Under the pieces are notes generated by a model. The model was not told the origin of the DNA. It made no database searches and saw nothing but the letters and a program-made list of their open reading frames with translations. The translations under genes and the position numbers were made by a program. Positions 1 to 9,244 of a stretch of DNA of 9,244 nucleotides are shown here, piece by piece (within the stretch, counting starts at the first letter, position 1; every line of letters begins with the position of its first letter). Location: contig JBAWVI010000035.1 in assembly GCA_037147375.1 (NCBI GenBank), positions 1-9,244 of the forward strand, written 5' to 3'. The stretch comes from an archaeon. Its GTDB lineage: Archaea; Iainarchaeota; Iainarchaeia; Iainarchaeales; CSSED10-239.

Positions 1-7
1 ACCTTTT

Positions 8-823
8 TTATTTAATCTTATTCTTTAAAAAAGCAGAAAGGTGTTGGTTCTTTGTGGTCTTTAATTTTTTTGAAATTTGGGTCTTTCTTCTTTCGTGCCC
101 AAATAAAAGCATATCCCCAAGTCCAGTTCCTTCTCTAATAAAATTATTATAGGATCTTATTGAATGTTTTTCTAATAATTGTATTTCTTTAACCTTAATA
201 TTGTTTTGATATAGTTTGGTTGGAATATATTTTTCACACCATTTTTTTACACAATCATTATAATATTCTCCAAATCCAATTATCTTAACTTCTTTATTTA
301 ATCTTGAATAATATTCTTGAGATAAAAAATTTGAATCGTGACCTGGAGAAAAGGTTGTTGTTACAAACCTATCCTTTAATAGTTCTTTACCATGAGAATT
401 AAATCTTTCAAGTAAAATATCATGTACTTGCTTGTAGGTATTGTATCTAAAATGTTGAGCATATTTTTCTCCAGCTTCTTGCTTGAAATCATCAAAGGTT
501 CTTATATGTTGGTTGACTATGCATACGCAAACTTTAGGATCATTTTTATATTTTTGGATGAGTTTACCGTATTCACCAAACTCTTTTTTAATAATTTTAT
601 TAACTTTGTTTAATTCTGGTTTTACATTCTTTTTTGGATTTAATATATTTTCAACTATAGATTTTGCAAAATCATTTATGTTTAATTTTTTATAATCATC
701 TATAGATATTTTATTGAACTTATCAATACAGTGAGGGATTATCATCATATCAAAAACAAGATAGAGAGGGTGTACTAGCACAACCATAGTATCATATTTT
801 TCTACCATATTATTATCAACCAT
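8..823 (-). CDS. Hypothetical protein, tandem paralog B of an uncharacterised family with a basic C-terminal tail
   Basis: 271-aa ORF with an ATG at 823, 1 nt after the stop of the upstream ORF (825-827). It shares ordered blocks with the 825..1472 product: VVLVHPLY/VVLVHPLW, GEYGKLIQKYK/GVYGNILNKYK followed by VC, HGKELLKDRF/HGKKVLGNRF, GFGEYYNDCV/YFGECREWCV, HERRKTQ/HERRMNQ, and a Lys-rich tail. Alignment with the paralog suggests the true start may be the internal Met at 808 (MVEKYDTMVV vs MVKYNKLVV). Function unknown. Confidence 0.6.
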   Translation of the reverse strand: MVDNNMVEKYDTMVVLVHPLYLVFDMMIIPHCIDKFNKISIDDYKKLNINDFAKSIVENILNPKKNVKPELNKVNKIIKKEFGEYGKLIQKYKNDPKVCVCIVNQHIRTFDDFKQEAGEKYAQHFRYNTYKQVHDILLERFNSHGKELLKDRFVTTTFSPGHDSNFLSQEYYSRLNKEVKIIGFGEYYNDCVKKWCEKYIPTKLYQNNIKVKEIQLLEKHSIRSYNNFIREGTGLGDMLLFGHERRKTQISKKLKTTKNQHLSAFLKNKIK

Positions 824-824
824 T

Positions 825-1472
825 TTATTTTAACATATATTTTCTTTGAAGAACTTGCTTTAATTTTGGATTCTTAAGCTTTGATATCTTCTTTGCTTGT
901 TGGTTCATTCTTCTCTCATGTGCTGTTTTAATTCTTAAATTTAAACCAATATCTTCACGAAACTTATAGAAGGTTCCTTCTTGTAATAGTTTATTACTTT
1001 TAACTTCTATTCCTCTCACCTTAAATTCATCAGGAATGCATTCCATGGTTTCCTTAACACACCATTCTCTGCATTCTCCAAAATATTCTATATCTATTTT
1101 TTTTCTAAAATTATTATATACTTCTTTATCTTTGAATAGTGGACGGGATTTCGCGTCTACTTCTCCAACATAATTTGAAATAATAAATCTGTTACCAAGA
1201 ACTTTTTTGCCATGCTGCACGAAAGGAGTTATGTGGGTTTCAAGAACTTTTATATTTTCTGGAATAGTAAAATCAGGTTTGATTAATAAGAAACAAACAT
1301 CTTCTCTTTGCTTGTATTTGTTTAGAATATTACCATATACACCTAATGTTTTGGTTAGTATTGATTTTGTTTTGTTGTATGCATCAGGTGTATTTCTTTT
1401 TAGTTCATTATATTCCTTAACAAAATACCAAAGAGGGTGAACTAATACAACTAATTTATTGTACTTTACCAT
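825..1472 (-). CDS. Hypothetical protein, tandem paralog A of the same uncharacterised family
   Basis: 215-aa ORF. Its ATG at 1470-1472 directly abuts the TAA of the gins ORF (1473-1475), so it is likely translationally coupled. See the shared blocks listed for 8..823. I recognise no confident family. Confidence 0.6.
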   Translation of the reverse strand: MVKYNKLVVLVHPLWYFVKEYNELKRNTPDAYNKTKSILTKTLGVYGNILNKYKQREDVCFLLIKPDFTIPENIKVLETHITPFVQHGKKVLGNRFIISNYVGEVDAKSRPLFKDKEVYNNFRKKIDIEYFGECREWCVKETMECIPDEFKVRGIEVKSNKLLQEGTFYKFREDIGLNLRIKTAHERRMNQQAKKISKLKNPKLKQVLQRKYMLK

Positions 1473-2039
1473 TTAGTCAACCTTTTCAATTATCTCCTTT
1501 GTTTCTAGAATCTTAAAGATATCTTCTGGGATTTCAACAACTTGCCCAGTATCAAATGGACCATATTCTTTCATGTCTCCTCCAATGAATGCTGGAATGT
1601 CTTGTAAGAATTTAACTTTGATTTGAGTTGTGGTATCTACATTTTGAGATTTCTTTGATAAACCAAATATTGTATTTGTTTGTTCGTTTTGCTTGTCTAT
1701 AAGTTTAAGTATTCCTTTTGCAAAATCAATTTCAAAATCAACTAATCCTTCATCTGCAAAATCATTTGTTCTACTGTACATCAGACACATGTTCATTATT
1801 TTTTTAATTCTTATTTCTCTTATCTTTTCAGTTATTCTTTTTAAGTTTTCAAATCTTTTTAAAGTGTTTGTTGAAAAAGAATCTTCAAATGAGGAGATGT
1901 ATTTATTTCTTTCTTCTGTTAAGAATTTCTTTAATGCTTTATAAAAAGAAGAATCTAATCTTGATAATTTAGGGGACTTAGTTTCTAGTCTATATATTTT
2001 TTGTAATTCATCGTAATCAACTTTGTAATCATCACTCAA
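1473..2039 (-). CDS. GINS complex subunit, Gins51/Gins15 type (DNA replication)
   Basis: 188 aa. The N-terminal helical region (LQKIYRLE...LSRLDSSFYKALKKFLTEE...IREIRIKKI) resembles the archaeal Gins51 A-domain. It is followed by a small C-terminal beta-rich domain (GPFDTGQVVEIPEDI). Its position immediately downstream of priS matches the priS-gins linkage known in archaea. The start is TTG at 2037-2039 (no in-frame ATG upstream before a stop). An SD-like GGGGTGG (plus-strand 2045-2052) sits about 7 nt upstream. The ORF overlaps the priS stop by 8 nt. Confidence 0.65.
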   Translation of the reverse strand: MSDDYKVDYDELQKIYRLETKSPKLSRLDSSFYKALKKFLTEERNKYISSFEDSFSTNTLKRFENLKRITEKIREIRIKKIMNMCLMYSRTNDFADEGLVDFEIDFAKGILKLIDKQNEQTNTIFGLSKKSQNVDTTTQIKVKFLQDIPAFIGGDMKEYGPFDTGQVVEIPEDIFKILETKEIIEKVD

Positions 2040-3297
2040 ATGTACCCACCCCTTTTAATATGAAATAAATGCAAACGTGTTCCTCAAGCTCTATAATTTC
2101 TCCAATAGTATATGGACCATATGTTTTGTTTAATAATTTTAGTTTAGGAATTGGTTTTAGGATCTTAATAGCTTTCTTAATATCAGATTTAAAAATTATA
2201 GGATCTTTTAAAGCATCAAAATCTTTAAGTTCTTGTACATCTTTTATTAAACTTGCTAAAAAACCAGTTCCTCCATGAATTGTGTTTGGCACTCTTACTA
2301 TCTTATATATATCTTGAGCAACAGAAGGATCTATCTTAAGCCTTGTGCTTTCAATTGCTTTGTTAATGAAATTACTCCAAAATTTGTCTTGAGATGTAAA
2401 ATCACTCCACAGTATACTATTATGATACATCTTATTTAAAATGATTTCCTTATTTTCGGATATAAGTTTTGCTTTTTGAGAAGTTATGTCTAACTTTGTT
2501 TTTAGTTCTTTTTCACTTGAATCTTTAATTGTTTCTATCATGTAATCAAGTATCTTCTTACCCCAACCCTTTGCTTTGTCTGGAGAGGGAATTGACCATT
2601 GCTTATGATCTAAGATAAATCCTAGTTTTTCTAAATTAATATCGTTACCTAAGATATAGTGCATCATAATTGCTCTTGATGCTTTTGATAAAGGAATTAT
2701 CTTTGGATCTATTATTCTTACGTGGTATCCTTTTGAACCAGAAAAGGAAATAATGAAGTAATTAGGATCTAAAGAGAAATCATTTACTAGAAATTCAATT
2801 AATCTTAAAGTCTCTTCTTTTGCTTTGCCAAGACACTTATCACAAGTCCATTCAATAATTTCTGTTGGAGAATTACACTCAGTGCACTTATCTATGTGAC
2901 CATAACCTGTTTTCTTACAAGCTACATTCTTACATAACCAAGTATCGTGCTCACTCTTACATGGAAGATCAAAGTCATCAGCATCAAACTCATAAACTAT
3001 GTCTGCTCCTGTCCATTCCTTAGCTTCCATAGGTCTTTTTTCTGGATATTTAAAATAACCAACTGAGTAAGAGATGTGAAAAGGAACATTTGTTTTAAGA
3101 TAAAAATTAAAATCATTAATTGAATTGAAGAAGAGATGACGAGCACTTATCTTCTTACCAAACTCTCCTATTCCAAACTCTCTTCTTTCTGGGACTACAA
3201 TAGTTGATACTGTATTATTAAGATAATAGTTCTTAAACTTATTTCTAACATAATTAACTGAATATGAGTTAAAATAAGTTGAATCTGTACCAGACAT
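2032..3297 (-). CDS. priS: DNA primase small (catalytic) subunit PriS, archaeo-eukaryotic primase (AEP) family
   Basis: 421 aa with the three AEP catalytic motifs in order: motif I DxD in VYEFDADD (2974-2997), motif II SGSKGYHVRI, and motif III IDPSVAQDIYKIVRVPNTIHGGTG. A Zn-knuckle cysteine cluster lies between motifs I and II (CKSEHDTWLCKNVAC...CTECNS...CDKC). The C-terminal segment (YGPYTIGEIIELEEHVCIYFILKGVG) is typical of PriS. Confidence 0.9.
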   Translation of the reverse strand: MSGTDSTYFNSYSVNYVRNKFKNYYLNNTVSTIVVPERREFGIGEFGKKISARHLFFNSINDFNFYLKTNVPFHISYSVGYFKYPEKRPMEAKEWTGADIVYEFDADDFDLPCKSEHDTWLCKNVACKKTGYGHIDKCTECNSPTEIIEWTCDKCLGKAKEETLRLIEFLVNDFSLDPNYFIISFSGSKGYHVRIIDPKIIPLSKASRAIMMHYILGNDINLEKLGFILDHKQWSIPSPDKAKGWGKKILDYMIETIKDSSEKELKTKLDITSQKAKLISENKEIILNKMYHNSILWSDFTSQDKFWSNFINKAIESTRLKIDPSVAQDIYKIVRVPNTIHGGTGFLASLIKDVQELKDFDALKDPIIFKSDIKKAIKILKPIPKLKLLNKTYGPYTIGEIIELEEHVCIYFILKGVGTFE

Positions 3298-3335
3298 AGA
3301 TAATATATAGAAAGAAAGAATTAAAAAGAAGAAGT

Positions 3336-5630
3336 TTACTGCATATTTATCTCTGAAATTCCATCATTTTCTTTATCTCTTTCTATTATGTACTTGTGGG
3401 AATTCAGGGTTTCAAGTAGCTTTGTATCATGGGTTATTATAAATACCTGGGCTATATATTGAGGAATATCATCTTCTAGTACTTGAGATAGCATTTCAAC
3501 TGCTTTAGTGTCTAAATTATGAGTTGGTTCATCAAGTATTAATAAACCGAGGTTCTTGGTTAAGATTAATGCAATAGCTATTCTTATTGATAAAGCAGCA
3601 CATGCTCTTTCTCCTCCACTTAAGAAGCCTTCAACCTTTATCCATTCTTTTGATTTTGTTTGGACCTCTAAGATGTAATCGTTGTCTGATCTTAAGCGAG
3701 CTGATAAATAGTCCTTGTATGGATAAACCTTTGGCCAGATTATTGAAAGAGCATCATTTATGTTATCAATTAAGACTTTTCTTAATTGGTGCTGGGAGAC
3801 TTCAATTGATTTAATGAAATTTGAGAGATCTTGTTTCTTAATCAAATAATTTTCTTTTGTGCTTTCTAAATCCTTTCTCTTTGATTCTAACTGGTTGTAA
3901 TTTGTTATTTGCTTTTCTAGATTGTCAAGTAAAGAATTGCTTGAACTTATTCTTGCAGTTAATGATTTTATTTCATTTTCTAAAGTCAAATAAGTTGAAT
4001 TGATTTTAATGTATTCTTCTTCGTTATATGATATTTGTTTTAAACTTTCTTCGATAGCTAGTATTTCATTTTTAAGATTTTCTTTAGTATTCATTTTTTC
4101 AAGAATCATTATTGAAAGATCTATTTGCTTTAGATTATCATTAATTTTTTGAAGATATGAATCATCTTCTTTAATTTCAGTTATAGATGTTGTTAATTTT
4201 TGTATTTCTACTTGAATTTCTTCTTTTCTTTTTTGATGTTGGGTAGTTGTTATCTCTAATTGTATGAGTGCAAGATCATCTTCTTTCTGCTTTGATATTT
4301 GTTTGTCTATTTTTTCTTCATCTTGCTTTAGCTTGTCTATTTCTTTTGTTGTGACTTCTAAGTATTGCTTATTTGTTTTTAATTCTTCTTCCTTAGATAG
4401 CTGTTTTTTTTGAATATCTTCTTTTGATAATTGATTATCACAGATTGGGCATTTTGAAAAGCCTTTCTTAAGCTCAGAAATTGATTTTTCAAGTTCTGAG
4501 ATTATTGATAAGCTTGTAATCCTTTTTTGCTTGATAAGAGATAGTTGTTCTTCAATAGATTTCTTTGTAAGTATAGTCTCGTGAAGGGGGGTTGCGGATA
4601 ATTTGGTTTTAGTGTCCAAGATTCTTTGTTGTTTTTCTTTAATTTCTGCTTCCAAACGAGAAAGCTCTCTTTCAAAAGATATTCTTTCATTAACTAGTTT
4701 TGATTTTTTATTTAACTCATCTTTTGTGCTTTCAAGATCTTTGCTTAAGATTAATTTTTCTTTTTCAATGTCTTGCGTATTATACGAAATATATTTTTCA
4801 TCAAGCTTATTTAAGTTTAAATAATTATTAATATCTTCTAATTTTACTTTTTTAAAAATTAATTCTTTTGTGCGCAAATCAAAGTCTTGTTTTTTCTTTT
4901 TTTGATTTGCAAGTTCAAGTGTTAGTTTATCTTCTTTACCTTTCCCAAGAAGAAGTTCTTCTTTTAATTTATTTTGAATATCTTTTGTTTCTTTTTGTTC
5001 TAGTAGCTTTGTTTCTAGATCAAAGGAAGTTAATTGAGAAGATATTTGTGAAATTAGTTGTGTTGTTGTACTCATTTCTACATCAACTAACCTATCAAGA
5101 GTTCTTGCACCATCTTTAATAGTATCTAGTTTAATTATTCCAAATAAATCATCAAATTTTTCTTTTCTTTTGCTAGGTTGGATTTTTAAAAAGTAATCAA
5201 GCTCGTTTTGCTCAGAATAAACAATCTTTGTAAATAATTCATAATCAACTCCGAGCAATTCTTCAATCCTTGTTGTGACATCAGTTTGTTTTGGGCCAGC
5301 AATAAGTTTATTATCTAGATAAAGCTTAGCAGAGGTTATTCCTTTATCATTTATTTCTCTTTCTATCTTGTATATCTTAGAATCAATAGTTAATGTAAGT
5401 ATTATTTTTGCATTTTCCTTCTTTACTGGTTTAAACATTATTACATCTATTGTTTTTAATTTCTTATTTGAAAGAGAAGGAAATGTTCCATAGAGAGCAT
5501 AACAAATAGCATCAGTTATGCTTGACTTACCAGAACCAACCTTACCAATAATTAGGTTAGTGCCGCTTGAGAAATCAAGAGATGAAGAAAGATGTGTTTT
5601 AAAATTCTCAAGATAAATAGAATTAATCAT
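3336..5630 (-). CDS. rad50: Rad50-type SMC-like DNA double-strand-break repair ATPase
   Basis: 764 aa. Walker A is GKVGSGKSS (5520-5546). A long K/E/L-rich coiled-coil region has a central CxxC zinc hook, CPIC, at aa 394-397 (4440-4451). The ABC signature LSGGERACAALSIRIA and Walker B LLILDEPTHNLD are followed by ITHD (H-loop). The central hook favours Rad50/SbcC over condensin-type SMC. Confidence 0.85.
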   Translation of the reverse strand: MINSIYLENFKTHLSSSLDFSSGTNLIIGKVGSGKSSITDAICYALYGTFPSLSNKKLKTIDVIMFKPVKKENAKIILTLTIDSKIYKIEREINDKGITSAKLYLDNKLIAGPKQTDVTTRIEELLGVDYELFTKIVYSEQNELDYFLKIQPSKRKEKFDDLFGIIKLDTIKDGARTLDRLVDVEMSTTTQLISQISSQLTSFDLETKLLEQKETKDIQNKLKEELLLGKGKEDKLTLELANQKKKKQDFDLRTKELIFKKVKLEDINNYLNLNKLDEKYISYNTQDIEKEKLILSKDLESTKDELNKKSKLVNERISFERELSRLEAEIKEKQQRILDTKTKLSATPLHETILTKKSIEEQLSLIKQKRITSLSIISELEKSISELKKGFSKCPICDNQLSKEDIQKKQLSKEEELKTNKQYLEVTTKEIDKLKQDEEKIDKQISKQKEDDLALIQLEITTTQHQKRKEEIQVEIQKLTTSITEIKEDDSYLQKINDNLKQIDLSIMILEKMNTKENLKNEILAIEESLKQISYNEEEYIKINSTYLTLENEIKSLTARISSSNSLLDNLEKQITNYNQLESKRKDLESTKENYLIKKQDLSNFIKSIEVSQHQLRKVLIDNINDALSIIWPKVYPYKDYLSARLRSDNDYILEVQTKSKEWIKVEGFLSGGERACAALSIRIAIALILTKNLGLLILDEPTHNLDTKAVEMLSQVLEDDIPQYIAQVFIITHDTKLLETLNSHKYIIERDKENDGISEINMQ

Positions 5631-5651
5631 AGATATATATTAGGTGGATAG

Positions 5652-5661
5652 TTATAAAAAA
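5652..5661 (-). promoter_or_regulatory. Candidate archaeal TATA box for the rad50-priS-gins operon
   Basis: The minus strand reads TTTTTTATAA at -31 to -22 relative to the rad50 ATG (5630). It lies in a 189-nt AT-rich intergenic region. The spacing fits a leaderless or short-leader archaeal transcript. The call rests on the sequence pattern only. Confidence 0.3.
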
Positions 5662-5819
5662 TAATTTATTAGATTAAAAGAAGATGAATATAAGAAGGCA
5701 AAGATAATTATAATTATATTTAAACCTACTTTTTATTACTTTATATAAAAATTAAGAAAAGATATAATTACAAGCAAAATTAAAATATTTATTATTTATA
5801 CTTAATTCATATATATTTA

Positions 5820-7451
5820 TTAATTTGATTTTCCTCTCAATTCATACCAAACATTATTTCCAGCACCTTGCCTTATAATCACATTCTGTTTTATTAAATA
5901 ATTTAAATCTCTAGATGCAATCTCTCTACTTATTACAAATCTTTTTTGTAAAATCTCACTTTTTAATTTATTATTTTGCTTTAAGTAATCTAATATCCAA
6001 TTTTGTCTAATTATTGGGTTTGTGTCAACATTTGTGTCAACATTTGTGTCAACATTGGTTAGATTATAAGCTTTATCTTCAATATAATCAAATTTAGGAT
6101 TTATTTTATATGCTTTATTTGTTTTTAAAAATATATTGTGATCTATGAAAAATTGCAATTCTTCAATTAATAACTTTTTATTAACTAAATATTCATATAA
6201 AAATTTATATTGATTATATTTTAAATTAATTTTATTATTTTCTAGTTTATCAATTATCTTGGCGAGTCTTAATGAATTTATTTCTGTATCTAATTTTAAA
6301 ACAACATTATAATCATCAGATTCGGAATAATCCGGGGTGTTTTTCCCAAATCTTACTTGATTATTATACATTTTGTTTGCGCCATCTCCAAAATTTTCAA
6401 TAAAATCACATTTATATAATACATCAGAAAGTAACTTATTTCTTGCTTTGGTTTTATCATATAAATTATCCTTGGTTATTCCTTTTAAAAAACCACCTGG
6501 ACTAGATATCTTGAAAGTATTTTCGGTTTGTTGAACAACTATAGATTCATTTTCAGAATAATCTCTATGAATAATTGCATTATTTATAGCTTCTCTTATA
6601 GATTCTTCATTAAATGCAAATTCTTCTTTTAAAGATAAACCTTTTGGAATGTGGATTAAATAATTTCTAAGATTAATTTTATCCCAAATTTTATTATAAT
6701 AATCAAAATATGCAAAGCGATATATCTCCATAACTTGATTTTTTGTGAAAGTCATATTCTTTCTATATCCAAATCTTATTTCTGAATGTAATAAATGCTT
6801 AAAAATTGTTTTTTCACTACCTAACAAAATAATACAAGCAATTGTAAGCTTATTATTATCTATAAGATTTAAATGCTCTAAAAGTTGCTTATCAGAATAT
6901 GAGTTTATATCTATTCTTATTCTATTTGATTCTTTTAATTTATTTTTTAATTCATGTATAGCAGATATTGAAAGATCTTTAATAGAAGTATTAGGAACAG
7001 GTAAAGACGAAAAATCAGATATATCTTCTTTTATTTTTTTATCTATATCTTCGGAATTTAAACAAATAATTTCATCTCCTAATCTACCTAAAAATTGGCC
7101 CTCAAAATCAAGTACAATTCCTTTTGGCCTAGAGGGTACATTAATTATTAATATTCTTATATTTTTTATAATTAGTTCCTGGACTTGAATTTTTCTTTTT
7201 AATCTATAATACACATCTTTTTCTAATTTTTTAATATCTTTAAATGCATGTGTTCCAATAATTTGTCTGGGTTTTTTATCAGTTACTCCTAAAATTAATT
7301 TACCTCCACCTTCGTTTGCTAATGCAACTATATATCCTAACAAACATTTTTTACCAGTATCAAAATTAAATTGTTCTTTTGCTTCTTTAAATTCTAAATG
7401 TTCTGTTTCTTTATCAACTTTTAGTAAATCCAATAATTCTTTTTTGTTCAT
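5820..7451 (-). CDS. AlbA_2 (Schlafen-type divergent AAA) / HATPase_c_4 (RecG-C-terminal-like) / C-terminal wHTH protein; putative nucleic-acid-binding regulator
   Basis: 543 aa. The N-terminus has ETEHLEFKEAKEQF...VALANEGGGKLILGVTD, the AlbA_2 signature. The centre has REAINNAIIHRDY, the HATPase_c_4 signature. The C-terminus has ISREIASRDLNYLIKQNVIIRQGAGNNVWYEL, which is winged-HTH-like. Signatures were recognised from memory; no HMM search was run. Confidence 0.7.
   Translation of the reverse strand: MNKKELLDLLKVDKETEHLEFKEAKEQFNFDTGKKCLLGYIVALANEGGGKLILGVTDKKPRQIIGTHAFKDIKKLEKDVYYRLKRKIQVQELIIKNIRILIINVPSRPKGIVLDFEGQFLGRLGDEIICLNSEDIDKKIKEDISDFSSLPVPNTSIKDLSISAIHELKNKLKESNRIRIDINSYSDKQLLEHLNLIDNNKLTIACIILLGSEKTIFKHLLHSEIRFGYRKNMTFTKNQVMEIYRFAYFDYYNKIWDKINLRNYLIHIPKGLSLKEEFAFNEESIREAINNAIIHRDYSENESIVVQQTENTFKISSPGGFLKGITKDNLYDKTKARNKLLSDVLYKCDFIENFGDGANKMYNNQVRFGKNTPDYSESDDYNVVLKLDTEINSLRLAKIIDKLENNKINLKYNQYKFLYEYLVNKKLLIEELQFFIDHNIFLKTNKAYKINPKFDYIEDKAYNLTNVDTNVDTNVDTNPIIRQNWILDYLKQNNKLKSEILQKRFVISREIASRDLNYLIKQNVIIRQGAGNNVWYELRGKSN
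6019..6056 (-). repeat. Perfect 12-nt tandem repeat (about 3.2 copies) inside the CDS, encoding (TNVD)x3
   Basis: The plus strand reads tttgtgtcaaca three times (6019-6030, 6031-6042, 6043-6054) followed by tt. It translates on the minus strand as NLTNVDTNVDTNVDTNP, in the linker before the C-terminal wHTH. Confidence 0.95.
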
Positions 7452-7590
7452 TATTTTTCACGCATATAGGTATTGATTTTATTTAGTAACTTGTACTTTT
7501 TTAATTAAACCATATATATTACATTTTTGGGGTGTATATTCTTTTCGGGGGGGTAGCTGGCCAAGCATCATTGTGTTTAAGGAAAATCAT

Positions 7591-8640
7591 TTATGATTGC
7601 TTTAACCAGAGGTACTTATAGGTAAGAAAACGCTCAGAGAATATTCTTTTTCCTAGAAAGTAAGTATCTGCGTGCATAATATACCCTAAAAAACTACATA
7701 TTGATGATTCCAATTGTTCTAAAGAAATAGTGTTTCTTTTCAAAGCTTTAATAAGCCTTTTTGTTCTTTTTGTAAACTTAAGTATATTTGCTCTTCTAAG
7801 TCTGGTGTGCGTTGGAAATGTTTTATAACCTACAAAGTCAACTCCATCCTTAATAAGATAAATATTTGTTTTTCGATTAGGAATATCAAGATATAAGTTT
7901 CTACGCAAAAAATATTTGATCTTACGTTTATATACTCGTAATTCTTTTTTTAAATTTGAAAAAATTATAAAATCATCAACATATCTATAATAGTATTTCG
8001 CTTTAAGTTTATGCTTAACAAACTTATCAAGCTCATTAAGATATATGTTTGCAAATAATTGACTTGTAAGATTTCCTATTGGTATTCCTTTGTTATCTCC
8101 AAAATCTGAATGATCAGAATCTATTATTAAATTTATTAGCCATAAGATTTGTTTGTCTTTTATTTTCTTTGCAATAATCCTTTTTAAGACTGTATGATCA
8201 ATTGAAGGAAAATATTTACGCACATCTGCTTTTAATGCGTGTCCCTTAAATCTGAAATGTAATTGTACGTCTTTTCTTATTGCTTTTAGTGCAGTATGTG
8301 TCCCTTTTTTCTTTCTACACGCATATGAATTTGATATAAATGTTTTATCAAATATTGGTTCAATTAGGTTACAGAGTGCATGTTGGACGACCCTATCTCT
8401 AAATGGGGGTGCTTTAATTAATCTTTCCTTAGGTTCATAGATCTTAAACACAAAGTAATTTGAACAAGTGTATTTTTTTGTAATTAATTCATCTTGTATT
8501 TTGAATAATTCAGATTCAAGATTGTATTTAAAATCAGTTATTCCTTTTGTTTTCTTTTTAGATCTTTTTGCTTTTAAAAATGCAGAATGTAGGTTTTCAA
8601 AAGAAATAAACTTATCCCAAAGATTATTATGTGATTTCAT
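7591..8640 (-). CDS. Diversity-generating retroelement (DGR) reverse transcriptase
   Basis: 349 aa. The RT motifs have DGR-clade hallmarks: FRDRVVQHALCN, YACRKKKGTHTA, ADVRKYFPSIDH, GIPIGNLTSQLFANIYLN (IGNLTSQ at 8059-8079; the xGxxxSQ variant of motif 4 is diagnostic of DGR RTs) and YVDD (7972-7983). The protein is collinear with my recollection of Bordetella phage BPP-1 Brt. The N-terminus is NLWDKFISFENLHSAF vs NLIDQITTWENLLDAY in Brt, and the tail contains HADTYFL. There is no group II intron maturase or endonuclease extension. A TR-like element lies directly upstream. Confidence 0.9.
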   Translation of the reverse strand: MKSHNNLWDKFISFENLHSAFLKAKRSKKKTKGITDFKYNLESELFKIQDELITKKYTCSNYFVFKIYEPKERLIKAPPFRDRVVQHALCNLIEPIFDKTFISNSYACRKKKGTHTALKAIRKDVQLHFRFKGHALKADVRKYFPSIDHTVLKRIIAKKIKDKQILWLINLIIDSDHSDFGDNKGIPIGNLTSQLFANIYLNELDKFVKHKLKAKYYYRYVDDFIIFSNLKKELRVYKRKIKYFLRRNLYLDIPNRKTNIYLIKDGVDFVGYKTFPTHTRLRRANILKFTKRTKRLIKALKRNTISLEQLESSICSFLGYIMHADTYFLGKRIFSERFLTYKYLWLKQS

Positions 8641-8880
8641 ATTTTACTACACTGTATTTATAGAATATTAAATAAACAGAATTTTCGCTAGGTTAAAGTT
8701 AACTACTAGTTCTGTTTATCTTGATTTGATTTTGGCACTCTCCAATAAACTAGATTATTGGGCAAAAGATTGCAGCCAAAGAATACACACTGATGTAGTC
8801 AAAACTTATAACCTTCTTTAGATATCAAAAATCGTGGATATCTAAACTCTTTTTAGTTTCCTACATTTATATAGGAGTAT
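8641..8880 (-). ncRNA. Non-coding spacer between TR and RT, probable structured part of the DGR RNA
   Basis: No ORF on the minus strand. Three inverted repeats are present. The first is at 8817-8846 (10-bp stem tttagatatc/gatatctaaa, 10-nt loop). The second is at 8742-8761 (ccaataa/ttattgg, 6-nt loop). The third is an extended imperfect hairpin at 8672-8719, with outer stem ataaacagaa/ttctgtttat and inner stems ctag/ctag and gttaa/ttaac. The position corresponds to the spacer RNA needed for cDNA priming in the BPP-1 DGR. Confidence 0.4.
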
Positions 8881-9012
8881 GACTGCTACGCAGCGGAGCC
8901 CGATGTTGTTGTTCGTGTTGCCTGGTTCGTTATTCAAGTTCAAGGCCATGAGCCCTGCGTTAGTCCCATTGTTCCAGTTCCCGCCAAATAACAAGGCACG
9001 AGCACCAATGCA
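8881..9012 (-). repeat. DGR template repeat (TR); boundaries approximate
   Basis: The minus strand translates as CIGARALLFGGNWNNGTNAGLMALNLNNEPGNTNNNIGLRCVAV. This is the conserved CLec-fold DGR variable-region scaffold (GGxWNNGxNAG...NIG[LF]RC). Eleven of 25 consecutive codons are AAC/AAT. The stretch is about 53% G+C by hand count, against a much more AT-rich background, and has roughly 34 adenines on the minus strand. The frame is open (8845-9108) but has no start codon upstream of the scaffold, which fits a non-coding TR rather than a VR. Confidence 0.8.
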
Positions 9013-9085
9013 CTTTATACAGTATGATTCTCCTCTTTCTTTTTTAGATAACTTAGAAAGAAAGATAAAGATAAGTTGTACTAAA

Positions 9086-9093
9086 TATTTAAA
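9086..9093 (-). promoter_or_regulatory. Candidate archaeal TATA box upstream of TR
   Basis: The minus strand reads TTTAAATA within TTTTTAAATATTT (9083-9095), matching the archaeal TTTAWATA consensus. It lies between the avd stop (9120) and the TR. Such matches are common by chance in sequence this AT-rich. Confidence 0.25.
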
Positions 9094-9119
9094 AATAGGG
9101 TTATATAACTAAAATACAA

Positions 9120-9244
9120 TTAACTTTTGTTATTTATTATTAATTTACCAAGCATTTTGCCAATTTCATTAATTTCACGTTCTGCAAACTCATACTTTTT
9201 AAAATCAAGTATTTTAAGATCCTTTGAAAGGCGAATAAATACTC
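9120..9244 (-). CDS. avd: Avd-like accessory variability determinant (four-helix-bundle, 23S rRNA IVS protein family), C-terminal 40 codons only; truncated by the window edge
   Basis: This ORF is not in the supplied track because it runs off the window. The minus frame ending at TAA (9120-9122) reads VFIRLSKDLKILDFKKYEFAEREINEIGKMLGKLIINNKS*. The tail E-I-G-K-M-L-G-x-L-I matches the C-terminal helix of Avd / four-helix-bundle proteins (BPP-1 Avd has EVGRILGSWI). The position upstream of TR-RT is canonical. Confidence 0.55.
   Translation of the reverse strand, partial: VFIRLSKDLKILDFKKYEFAEREINEIGKMLGKLIINNKS

Follow-up and report, generated by a model that had tools for sequence, protein, structure and literature searches.

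An archaeal diversity-generating retroelement with a probable pilin-like target protein

Introduction

Diversity-generating retroelements (DGRs) are, to our knowledge, the only system for targeted protein hypermutation in prokaryotes. They are reported to be abundant in bacteria of the CPR (candidate phyla radiation) and in DPANN archaea. The DGR of Bordetella phage BPP-1 consists of the reverse transcriptase (RT) gene brt, avd, a template repeat (TR) and the target gene mtd (PDB 8ub7-8ube and 4dwl), and the target gene closes, at its very 3' end, with a variable repeat (VR) of about 130 nt. In archaea with small genomes, DGRs became known in 2015-2017, from the DUSEL4 Nanoarchaeota and virus ANMV-1 (PMC4372165) and from CPR and DPANN genomes (Paul et al. 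2017; Roux et al. 2021, PMC8144416). The targets of the nanoarchaeal DGRs were called orphan genes (Paul et al. 2015, PMC4372165), and archaeal DGR targets typically carry no recognisable transmembrane or other conserved domain (PMC8144416). Here we describe a DGR in a stretch of 9,244 nt, positions 1-9,244 of the forward strand of contig JBAWVI010000035.1 (assembly GCA_037147375.1), which is called the window below. This region is a genuine DGR of an uncultivated archaeon and a new example of an already known system; it leaves the concept of a DGR unchanged. The window very probably holds the RT-proximal half of a functional DGR that lies on the chromosome of an AT-rich archaeon and has a pilin-like target.

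The locus can be compared with the BPP-1 system part by part. The two RTs are homologous over their full length, both systems have a four-helix-bundle Avd, and avd, TR, spacer and RT gene follow each other in the same order. In both, the TR is rich in AAY codons, the mismatches between TR and VR are adenine-specific, and the VR ends the gene of a target with a C-type-lectin fold. A GC-rich 3' end common to TR and VR and a hairpin downstream of the VR are also found in both. The differences concern the host, which is an archaeon here and not a phage, and the presence of a second, divergent Avd-like gene between target and avd, whose product is near-neutral. The hairpin here lies behind a block of ATCTG repeats, whereas in BPP-1 it directly follows the initiation of mutagenic homing (IMH) element. 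The target here is a pilin-like cellular protein; in BPP-1 it is the tip of the tail fibre.

Like the described archaeal DGRs, this one is chromosomal, belongs to a small-genome uncultivated archaeon, has its VR in a C-terminus of the C-type-lectin (CLec) kind and cis hairpins near the VR, and acts on a poorly annotated target family. The hairpins of DUSEL4 are inside the target gene and have GRA loops, whereas the hairpin here is intergenic. Unlike the published archaeal targets, which were described as orphan genes or as lacking recognisable domains, the target here has an N-terminus that resembles those of archaeal type IV pilins (class III signal). Two avd genes were found in 1 of 372 surveyed DGRs (Wu et al. 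2018, PMC5758913), so a tandem Avd arrangement is uncommon. In contrast to that case, the second copy here is highly divergent: it stays below the Pfam threshold, has 130 instead of 112 residues, is not basic and is kept in at least five loci. A hypervariable CLec domain fused to a pilin-type module is also known from the DGR-diversified type V pilus adhesins of Bacteroides (bioRxiv 10.1101/2024.11.15.621889), and such a fusion suggests a diversified binding surface displayed on a pilus. Homologs of the target in CPR bacteria carry a bacterial N_methyl prepilin domain fused to an FGE-sulfatase domain. Different from both of these, the system described here is archaeal and type IV pilin-like, and is known from sequence and models.

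Template and variable repeats

The TR is found on the minus strand at 8881-9006 (126 nt). It is non-coding, AAY-rich and comparatively rich in G+C, and in one frame it reads GARALLFGGNWNNGTNAGLMALNLNNEPGNTNNNIGLRCVAV. It contains 33 adenines and 11 AAY codons. With 17 variable codons, about 1.7e16 peptides are possible, and in none of the 42 TR codons does substitution of an adenine create a stop. No second copy of the TR that could serve as the VR was present within the window.

The VR was detected on overlapping contigs of the window population and on related loci. L011, a contig of 1157 nt assembled from SRR8517160 (Logan), begins in the VR and ends in the TR. Its VR (L011:1-124) differs from the window TR at 12 of 124 nt, and 9 of these mismatches fall on TR adenines (hypergeometric P = 3e-4). 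Two related loci contain both repeats in cis. In L021, all of the 20 mismatches in 126 nt are at TR adenines (VR at 11201-11326, P = 2e-13). In L008, 14 out of 15 mismatches in 126 nt are at TR adenines (P = 1e-8). These P values indicate that the adenine bias is not due to chance. Over the three lineages, 27-54% of the TR adenines are changed in the VR.

All TRs were then compared with all VRs. The VRs showed 0, 1 or 3 non-adenine mismatches to their own TR, versus 7-13 to the TRs of the other lineages. Since each VR tracks its own TR at non-adenine sites, the TR sequence must have been copied into the VR (retrohoming) after the lineages diverged. At the level of sequence, these comparisons establish an adenine-specific transfer of information from TR to VR.

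Assemblies of the cassette family tend to break at the repeats. All 11 independent contigs that failed to resolve both repeats have their end within or beside the VR or TR, which is expected because a 126-nt repeat with a variable copy should break an assembly. Indirect support for ongoing mutagenesis of adenines comes from the many assemblies whose contigs stop in one of the two repeats and from the differences between the VRs of the lineages.

Two mechanical open reading frames (ORFs) run over the TR, at 8842-8994 (minus strand, 50 aa) and at 8879-9112 (plus strand, 77 aa). The 77-aa ORF has been annotated by gene callers on L002.

Extension of the locus beyond the window

Exactly the same RT protein is encoded on six other contigs, and every one of them stops at or just upstream of avd. 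Contig L007, from JGI metagenomes, was found with a degenerate TR pattern in which each A was replaced by N; it carries the same locus, and the match was the TR of this locus only. The pattern gave no match in species-representative genomes or in IMG/VR. L007 extends 159 nt upstream of avd and enters another ORF there. A protein search with the tail of this ORF led to a conserved 130-aa protein, and the contigs that encode this protein have upstream of it the 3' end of a gene, ...GLRCVVVP*, with a copy of the TR inside. A guess that L007 begins right after the VR was discarded, because a chimeric query made of the TR translation and the tail of the upstream ORF matched with the tail only, which exposed the 130-aa ORF as a separate one.

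L011 is 100% identical to L007 and L002 over overlaps of 643 and 539 nt. L007 and L002 have a TR identical to that of the window and are 98.6-99.4% identical to the window overall. When the locus was projected via L011 onto window coordinates, the start of avd was placed at about 9458, the 130-aa ORF at about 9462-9854 and the VR at about 10008-10134. The VR thus lies about 765-890 nt past the window end, behind the rest of avd, the 130-aa Avd-like gene and a conserved non-coding stretch of about 150 nt. The ENA contig L021 (13.4 kb), with a cassette 85% identical to that of the window, carries a cis-complete locus. The order on L021 is rpL1 - rpL10 - rpP1, target gene (443 aa), about 150 nt of non-coding DNA, 130-aa ORF, avd, TR, spacer and RT gene. 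In the genome assembly of the window itself, rpL1 (MEI8364229.1) is on a contig of 14.5 kb.

An earlier note, made from the letters of the window, had proposed an archaeal DGR with avd, TR and RT on the minus strand and a target off the window past 9244. The core of this proposal is correct. The cognate VR was found on that side, with the adenine-specific mismatches that the note had asked for, and the Avd C-terminus, TR, spacer and RT all lie on the minus strand where the note had put them. The profile match of the upstream ORF to Avd, the stability of the spacer and the match of the RT to a DGR RT, all given below, also agree with it. Some details need revision. The TR starts at 8881 as proposed, but ends at 9006 and not at 9012. 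The target is beyond 9244, but not immediately, as described above. The canonical layout holds for the avd-TR-RT part, but the complete order is target - avd-like - avd - TR - RT.

Reverse transcriptase and Avd proteins

The RT gene (7591-8640, minus strand) is intact and encodes a protein of 349 aa with a match to Pfam RVT_1. RTs of the DGR clade have the motifs [LIV]GxxxSQ and YxDD, a length of about 320-400 aa and no maturase or endonuclease domain, and the assignment was judged by PDB match and motifs. The ORF contains IGNLTSQ, the DGR-type form of motif 4, and the catalytic YVDD. It matched the Bordetella DGR RT (PDB 8ub7) over residues 2-329 with E = 2.8e-58 (201 bits), compared with E = 4.9e-23 for the best group II intron RT (7uim). 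Peptide patterns from the RT alignment matched 138 stretches in species-representative genomes, and none of them was a relative.

The avd gene is cut by the window end, so that its last 40 codons and the stop are present (9120-9244, minus strand). Positions 9120-9242 translate to VFIRLSKDLKILDFKKYEFAEREINEIGKMLGKLIINNKS*, the 40 C-terminal residues of Avd. The full protein of 112 aa is encoded on the near-identical contigs L002 (56-394), L007 and L011. It passes the NCBIfam model NF033474 'DGR protein Avd' (DivGenRetAVD) with 105.9 bits against a cutoff of 80, and it matches Pfam bAvd with E = 8.5e-22. A search of PDB sequences with the Avd profile gave nothing at E <= 0.01.

The 130-aa ORF is positioned between target and avd (L011:278-670, L021:11486-11878, L008:299-691), and this position is kept in at least five related loci. 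Synonymous codon changes exceeded non-synonymous ones in all of the 10 pairwise comparisons. Conservation in five loci, together with the synonymous excess in every pair, indicates that the ORF is a real gene. No Pfam or PADLOC family was matched above threshold, and the match to Pfam 23S_rRNA_IVP was sub-threshold (E = 3e-4). The AlphaFold2 (AF2) model is a four-helix bundle with a predicted local distance difference test score (pLDDT) of 86. Its best Foldseek matches belong to the 23S-rRNA-IVP/Avd family (2gsc and 2rld, then Bordetella Avd 4dwl and the Avd chains of 8ub7). Judged by this predicted fold and the sub-threshold Pfam match, the 130-aa protein is a divergent Avd-like protein. Its isoelectric point (pI) is 7.7, which is near-neutral, versus 9.25 for the basic Avd. 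It might form mixed pentamers with Avd or act at the target site.

Target protein

The final 42 residues of the target are encoded by the VR. When the translation of the window TR was searched with HMMER against 1.84 billion representative proteins, most of the matches were short ORFs over other TRs. Many such short 'proteins' are held in public protein sets, and they made up most of the best 150 of the 567 matches. The same search also gave P0165, which matches the pre-VR part of the target fragment on contig L012; a protein homolog search with this 94-aa fragment itself found nothing. P0165 has 805 homologs at E <= 1e-3. The cellular target homologs are about 440-500 aa long, start with ..KKSVSALIATILLIVVAVALIAIILTWGK.. 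and end with ..GLRCVVVP.

The structure of P0173, the target on L021, was modelled by AF2 from 54 aligned sequences (pLDDT 85.5). The model has an N-terminal helix of 42 residues, a beta-sandwich and a large C-terminal domain. The top Foldseek matches were the DGR variable proteins TaqVP (E = 1.8e-8), Mtd and TvpA, and the N-terminal part matched the type IV pili of Sulfolobus and Pyrobaculum (6nav, 8q30 and 6w8u). The Pfam domain FGE-sulfatase (PF03781) was detected on the C-terminal half, above cutoff in the homolog P0195 and just below it in P0173. The sign of a pilin-type N-terminus was taken to be a class III signal peptide with a hydrophobic alpha-1 helix behind it (TIGR02537 or PF07790). 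According to the model and these profile matches, the target is a protein of about 440 aa with an archaeal class III signal/type IV pilin-like N-terminal helix, an Ig-like domain and a C-type-lectin/FGE-sulfatase-like domain, the last ~40 residues of which are the VR. The system likely allows the ligand-binding surface of an adhesin, either pilus-associated or surface-anchored, to vary rapidly. With this pilin-like adhesin the cell would presumably make contact with host cells or other surfaces.

The closest full-length homolog of P0165 is encoded by a virus. Contig L018 (JGI Ga0247840_10011065) is a tailed-virus contig with portal, Mu F, SU10 capsid and HNH genes. Its gene at 2521-4026 encodes a 501-aa protein that also ends with GLRCVVVP. 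The C-terminal 300 residues are 63% identical to P0165, and the N-terminal domain is not of the pilin type. No TR and no RT were found on this 11-kb fragment. The sample ids of L018 (Ga0247840-42) are adjacent to those of the samples that yielded the host-like contigs L013 and L015.

Spacer and other non-coding elements

The spacer between TR and RT gene (8641-8880, 240 nt, minus strand) is predicted to be structured. Its minimum free energy is -52.5 kcal/mol (z = -3.42), and none of 200 shuffled sequences was as stable. The fold contains a 10-bp hairpin (TTTAGATATC/GATATCTAAA), a branched GGC...GCC element and a 12-bp AACAGAA.../...TTCTGTT stem. In the consensus fold of three sequences, 57 pairs were formed and 2 of them showed compensatory changes. 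The spacer is about 90% conserved across loci versus about 82% identity of the genes, and in a four-locus alignment TR and spacer together are more conserved than the flanking genes. The spacer is analogous to the Sp region of the Bordetella DGR RNA.

The avd-TR intergenic region (9007-9119, minus strand) is also strongly conserved in the four-locus alignment. It contains an invariant A/T box, ATTTTTAAATATTTA, at about 9082-9096, which may be an archaeal TATA-like promoter for an RNA of TR, spacer and RT. TR and VR have the GC-rich 3' end GGGCTCCGCTGCGTAG in common; immediately past GTAG(Y)AGT they diverge.

Behind the stop codon of the target lies a conserved non-coding block (L011:128-277, L008:142-298, L021:11330-11485). 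In it are four ATCTG(G) repeats at a spacing of 8-9 nt, a GTCGTCGT run and, about 70-90 nt past the stop codon, a GC hairpin with compensatory changes in the stem and a GAAA, GTAA or AAA loop. Partial copies of the block were found on L017 (11321-11440), L019 (3810-3950) and L018 (4024-4100). On L017 and L019 it lies 3' of paralogous target genes with no DGR nearby, and on the viral contig L018 its first ~70 nt are found 3' of the homologous gene. The VRs of L017, L019 and L018 are incompatible with the TRs seen here. The post-VR block is a candidate retrohoming address or 3' untranslated region element. Because the block and the VR scaffold follow paralogous pilin genes and a tail-protein gene of a co-occurring virus, one RT could serve several targets, or diversifiable binding modules could be exchanged between host and virus. 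We also considered whether the stretch after the target stop is coding through recoding, since TGA and TGG alternate at one position. This was rejected: L008 and L011 are put out of frame with each other by a 1-nt indel, and in L008 the 130-aa ORF itself ends with TGA.

Proposed mechanism and alternative explanations

By analogy with the BPP-1 DGR, an RNA composed of TR and structured spacer would be bound by the RT together with an Avd pentamer. Synthesis of cDNA would be primed from the spacer, and the RT would copy the TR and misincorporate opposite template adenines. The cDNA would then replace the VR at the 3' end of the target gene, in a direction set by the GC-rich end common to TR and VR. 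More specifically, the basic Avd and its near-neutral 130-aa paralog could form a two-component Avd in a DGR that hypermutates the tip of a type IV pilin-like adhesin, with the post-VR block as the retrohoming address. We propose this detailed version tentatively and consider it rather doubtful as a whole.

The tandem Avd-like gene, the pilin-like target and the post-VR element common to paralogs and a virus are the noteworthy features of the locus. For this lineage the DGR target can be named, as a probable pilin-like surface protein with a C-type-lectin variable tip. This provides a concrete hypothesis: the organism, which is probably dependent on other cells, would vary its attachment by pili. 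Specific leads on how DGRs other than that of Bordetella recognise their targets are offered by the second Avd-like gene and the post-VR block.

Several observations weigh against a functional DGR with a pilin-like target. The VR and the target are absent from the window's own contig and are linked to it through near-identical contigs, and where L011, which carries the VR, overlaps the window (270 nt of avd-TR), the identity is only 95%. The L011 VR has three non-adenine mismatches, an internal G-to-T change and two at the 3' edge. At L011:31-33 it reads TGT (Cys) instead of the TGG, present in the TR and all other VRs, that encodes the conserved Trp of GGxW; the mutation may be real or come from a minority variant caught in a unitig. 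A published criterion for DGRs (PMC4372165) asks, per 100 bp, for 10 or more mismatches at adenines and no more than 2 elsewhere, and the window-type VR with its 9 adenine mismatches just misses it. For the population of the window, only the last 42 residues of the target were seen, and the full-length target is known only from the relative L021. With the archaeal flagellin/pilin profile TIGR02537 (arch_flag_Nterm, cutoff 20), P0195 passes at 22.6 bits and P0173 remains just under at 18.8 bits. An hhalign comparison of the 130-aa ORF with Avd gave a probability of 0.4%, with alignments that were too shallow. Finally, the case for present-day adenine mutagenesis is indirect and comes from assembled contigs.

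This last point and the changed Trp codon would also fit a decayed or domesticated DGR that is no longer mutagenic, in which the differences between TR and VR are relics. Paralogous targets with no nearby TR in the related genomes L017 and L019 point in the same direction and show that static copies of the scaffold do occur. However, none of the contigs seen has a disrupted RT, avd or 130-aa ORF, synonymous codon changes dominate, and the catalytic YVDD is kept. TR and spacer are better conserved than the genes beside them, the VRs of three lineages match their own TR at non-adenine sites while a large part of the TR adenines is changed, and assemblies break at both VR and TR. We therefore regard decay as unlikely. 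An entirely different reading is that the RT belongs to a group II intron, a retron or a DRT/UG/Abi system and that the Asn-rich repeat is a coincidence. In the NCBI annotation the protein is no more than a 'reverse transcriptase/maturase family protein', TIGR04416 (group II intron RT/maturase) comes out first among the NCBIfam models, and PADLOC lists UG17 and other DRT models. These models were matched far under their cutoffs (159 versus 300 bits for TIGR04416, 56 versus 235 for retron_St85, 60 versus 200 for Drt3a and 50 versus 390 for Drt2), and the PADLOC matches were to generic RT models with no assignment to a defence system. The match to the Bordetella RT surpasses that to the best group II RT by 35 orders of magnitude. 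Rfam gave no family at E <= 1 over the whole window, including group II intron and retron RNAs, and the locus has an Avd gene and a TR as well as an adenine-specific VR. The TR/VR evidence rules this reading out, and we give it practically no weight.

The DGR could also be that of a virus, a provirus or a mobile island, with a viral receptor-binding protein as its true target. In favour of this, the segment upstream of 5690 is absent at the same site in the 89%-identical relative L013, and related cassettes have three downstream neighbourhoods with island-type genes (Schlafen-like ATPase, YhcG nuclease and ORF6N). The viral homolog on L018 and the beginning of the post-VR block behind it point the same way. 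Yet no virion, integrase or terminase gene adjoins any cassette seen, and the L021 target directly follows the ribosomal operon L1-L10-P1. The N-terminal domain of the viral homolog differs from the pilin-type one of the cellular targets, and the viral VR shows 21-26 non-adenine mismatches to the TRs of these cassettes. In IMG/VR, neither a close relative of the RT (best 37% identity) nor an Avd-like match to the 130-aa ORF was found. A viral or mobile origin of this kind is quite unlikely in our judgement, and the locus is best read as a chromosomal DGR located in a variable region.

Genomic neighbourhood and host

The long ORFs of the window are exclusively on the minus strand, and the G+C content is about 27%, with a range of 19 to 33% along the sequence. 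The flanking genes are archaeal and encode a Rad50/SMC-type ATPase, PriS and Gins51, in agreement with the earlier note. The syntenic contig L013 additionally carries Orc1/Cdc6, PCNA, aIF2-alpha and aRF1. The host is an archaeon; the NCBI label of the window's proteins is 'MAG: ... [archaeon]'. Its membership in DPANN is plausible: the low G+C content and a related genome in a 0.98-Mb contig are compatible with it, and some target homologs of about 50% identity are labelled Candidatus Iainarchaeum (printed as 'ainarchaeum').

L013 is 89% identical to window positions 1-5690 and then diverges (breakpoint 5690/5691), and L014 has this identity to window positions 1-4979, where the contig ends. 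Upstream of Rad50, L013 has a different ORF of 183 aa, with neither the DGR nor the 543-aa Schlafen-like gene described below. The core chromosomal context claimed for the cassette is thus right insofar as it abuts Rad50-PriS-GINS here and follows rpL1-L10-P1 in L021, but a fixed core position is contradicted by its absence from the L013 site. Downstream of the related cassettes, the neighbourhood is YhcG-RadA in L008, ORF6N-helicase-XPF in L010 or the Schlafen-like ATPase.

The 3' flank of the cassette (7509-7590, minus strand) is still homologous to the related cassette in L010 by blastn. A 22-nt motif, ATGATGCTTGGCCAGCTACCCC, is found in it at 7550-7571 (minus strand), 20 nt past the RT stop, and is G+C-rich in an A+T-rich genome. 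The motif recurs in the relative at L013:2663-2684, upstream of orc1/cdc6, and has no match in Rfam. The rest of the variable segment, as delimited by blastn against L013 (5691-7508, minus strand), is not part of the DGR. It contains the gene for the 543-aa protein (5820-7451, minus strand), in which Pfam identifies Schlafen AlbA_2, HATPase_c_4 and a DeoR-type helix-turn-helix. This protein gave weak PADLOC matches to pAgo-associated SIR2-PNTD proteins, and in relatives it lies outside the cassette.

Some minor features were observed farther away. The two tandem ORFs at 8-823 and 825-1472 (minus strand) are paralogous (26% identity, E = 5e-20) and match no Pfam or NCBIfam family; they are kept directly after Gins51 in L013, L014 and L015. 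At window positions 4536-4815, L002 and L003 differ from the window by an indel in the coiled-coil region of Rad50, and Rad50 is called there as a 252-aa fragment. In L013 (18763-21308), the precomputed Pfam list shows aRF1 with an intein and a LAGLIDADG endonuclease.

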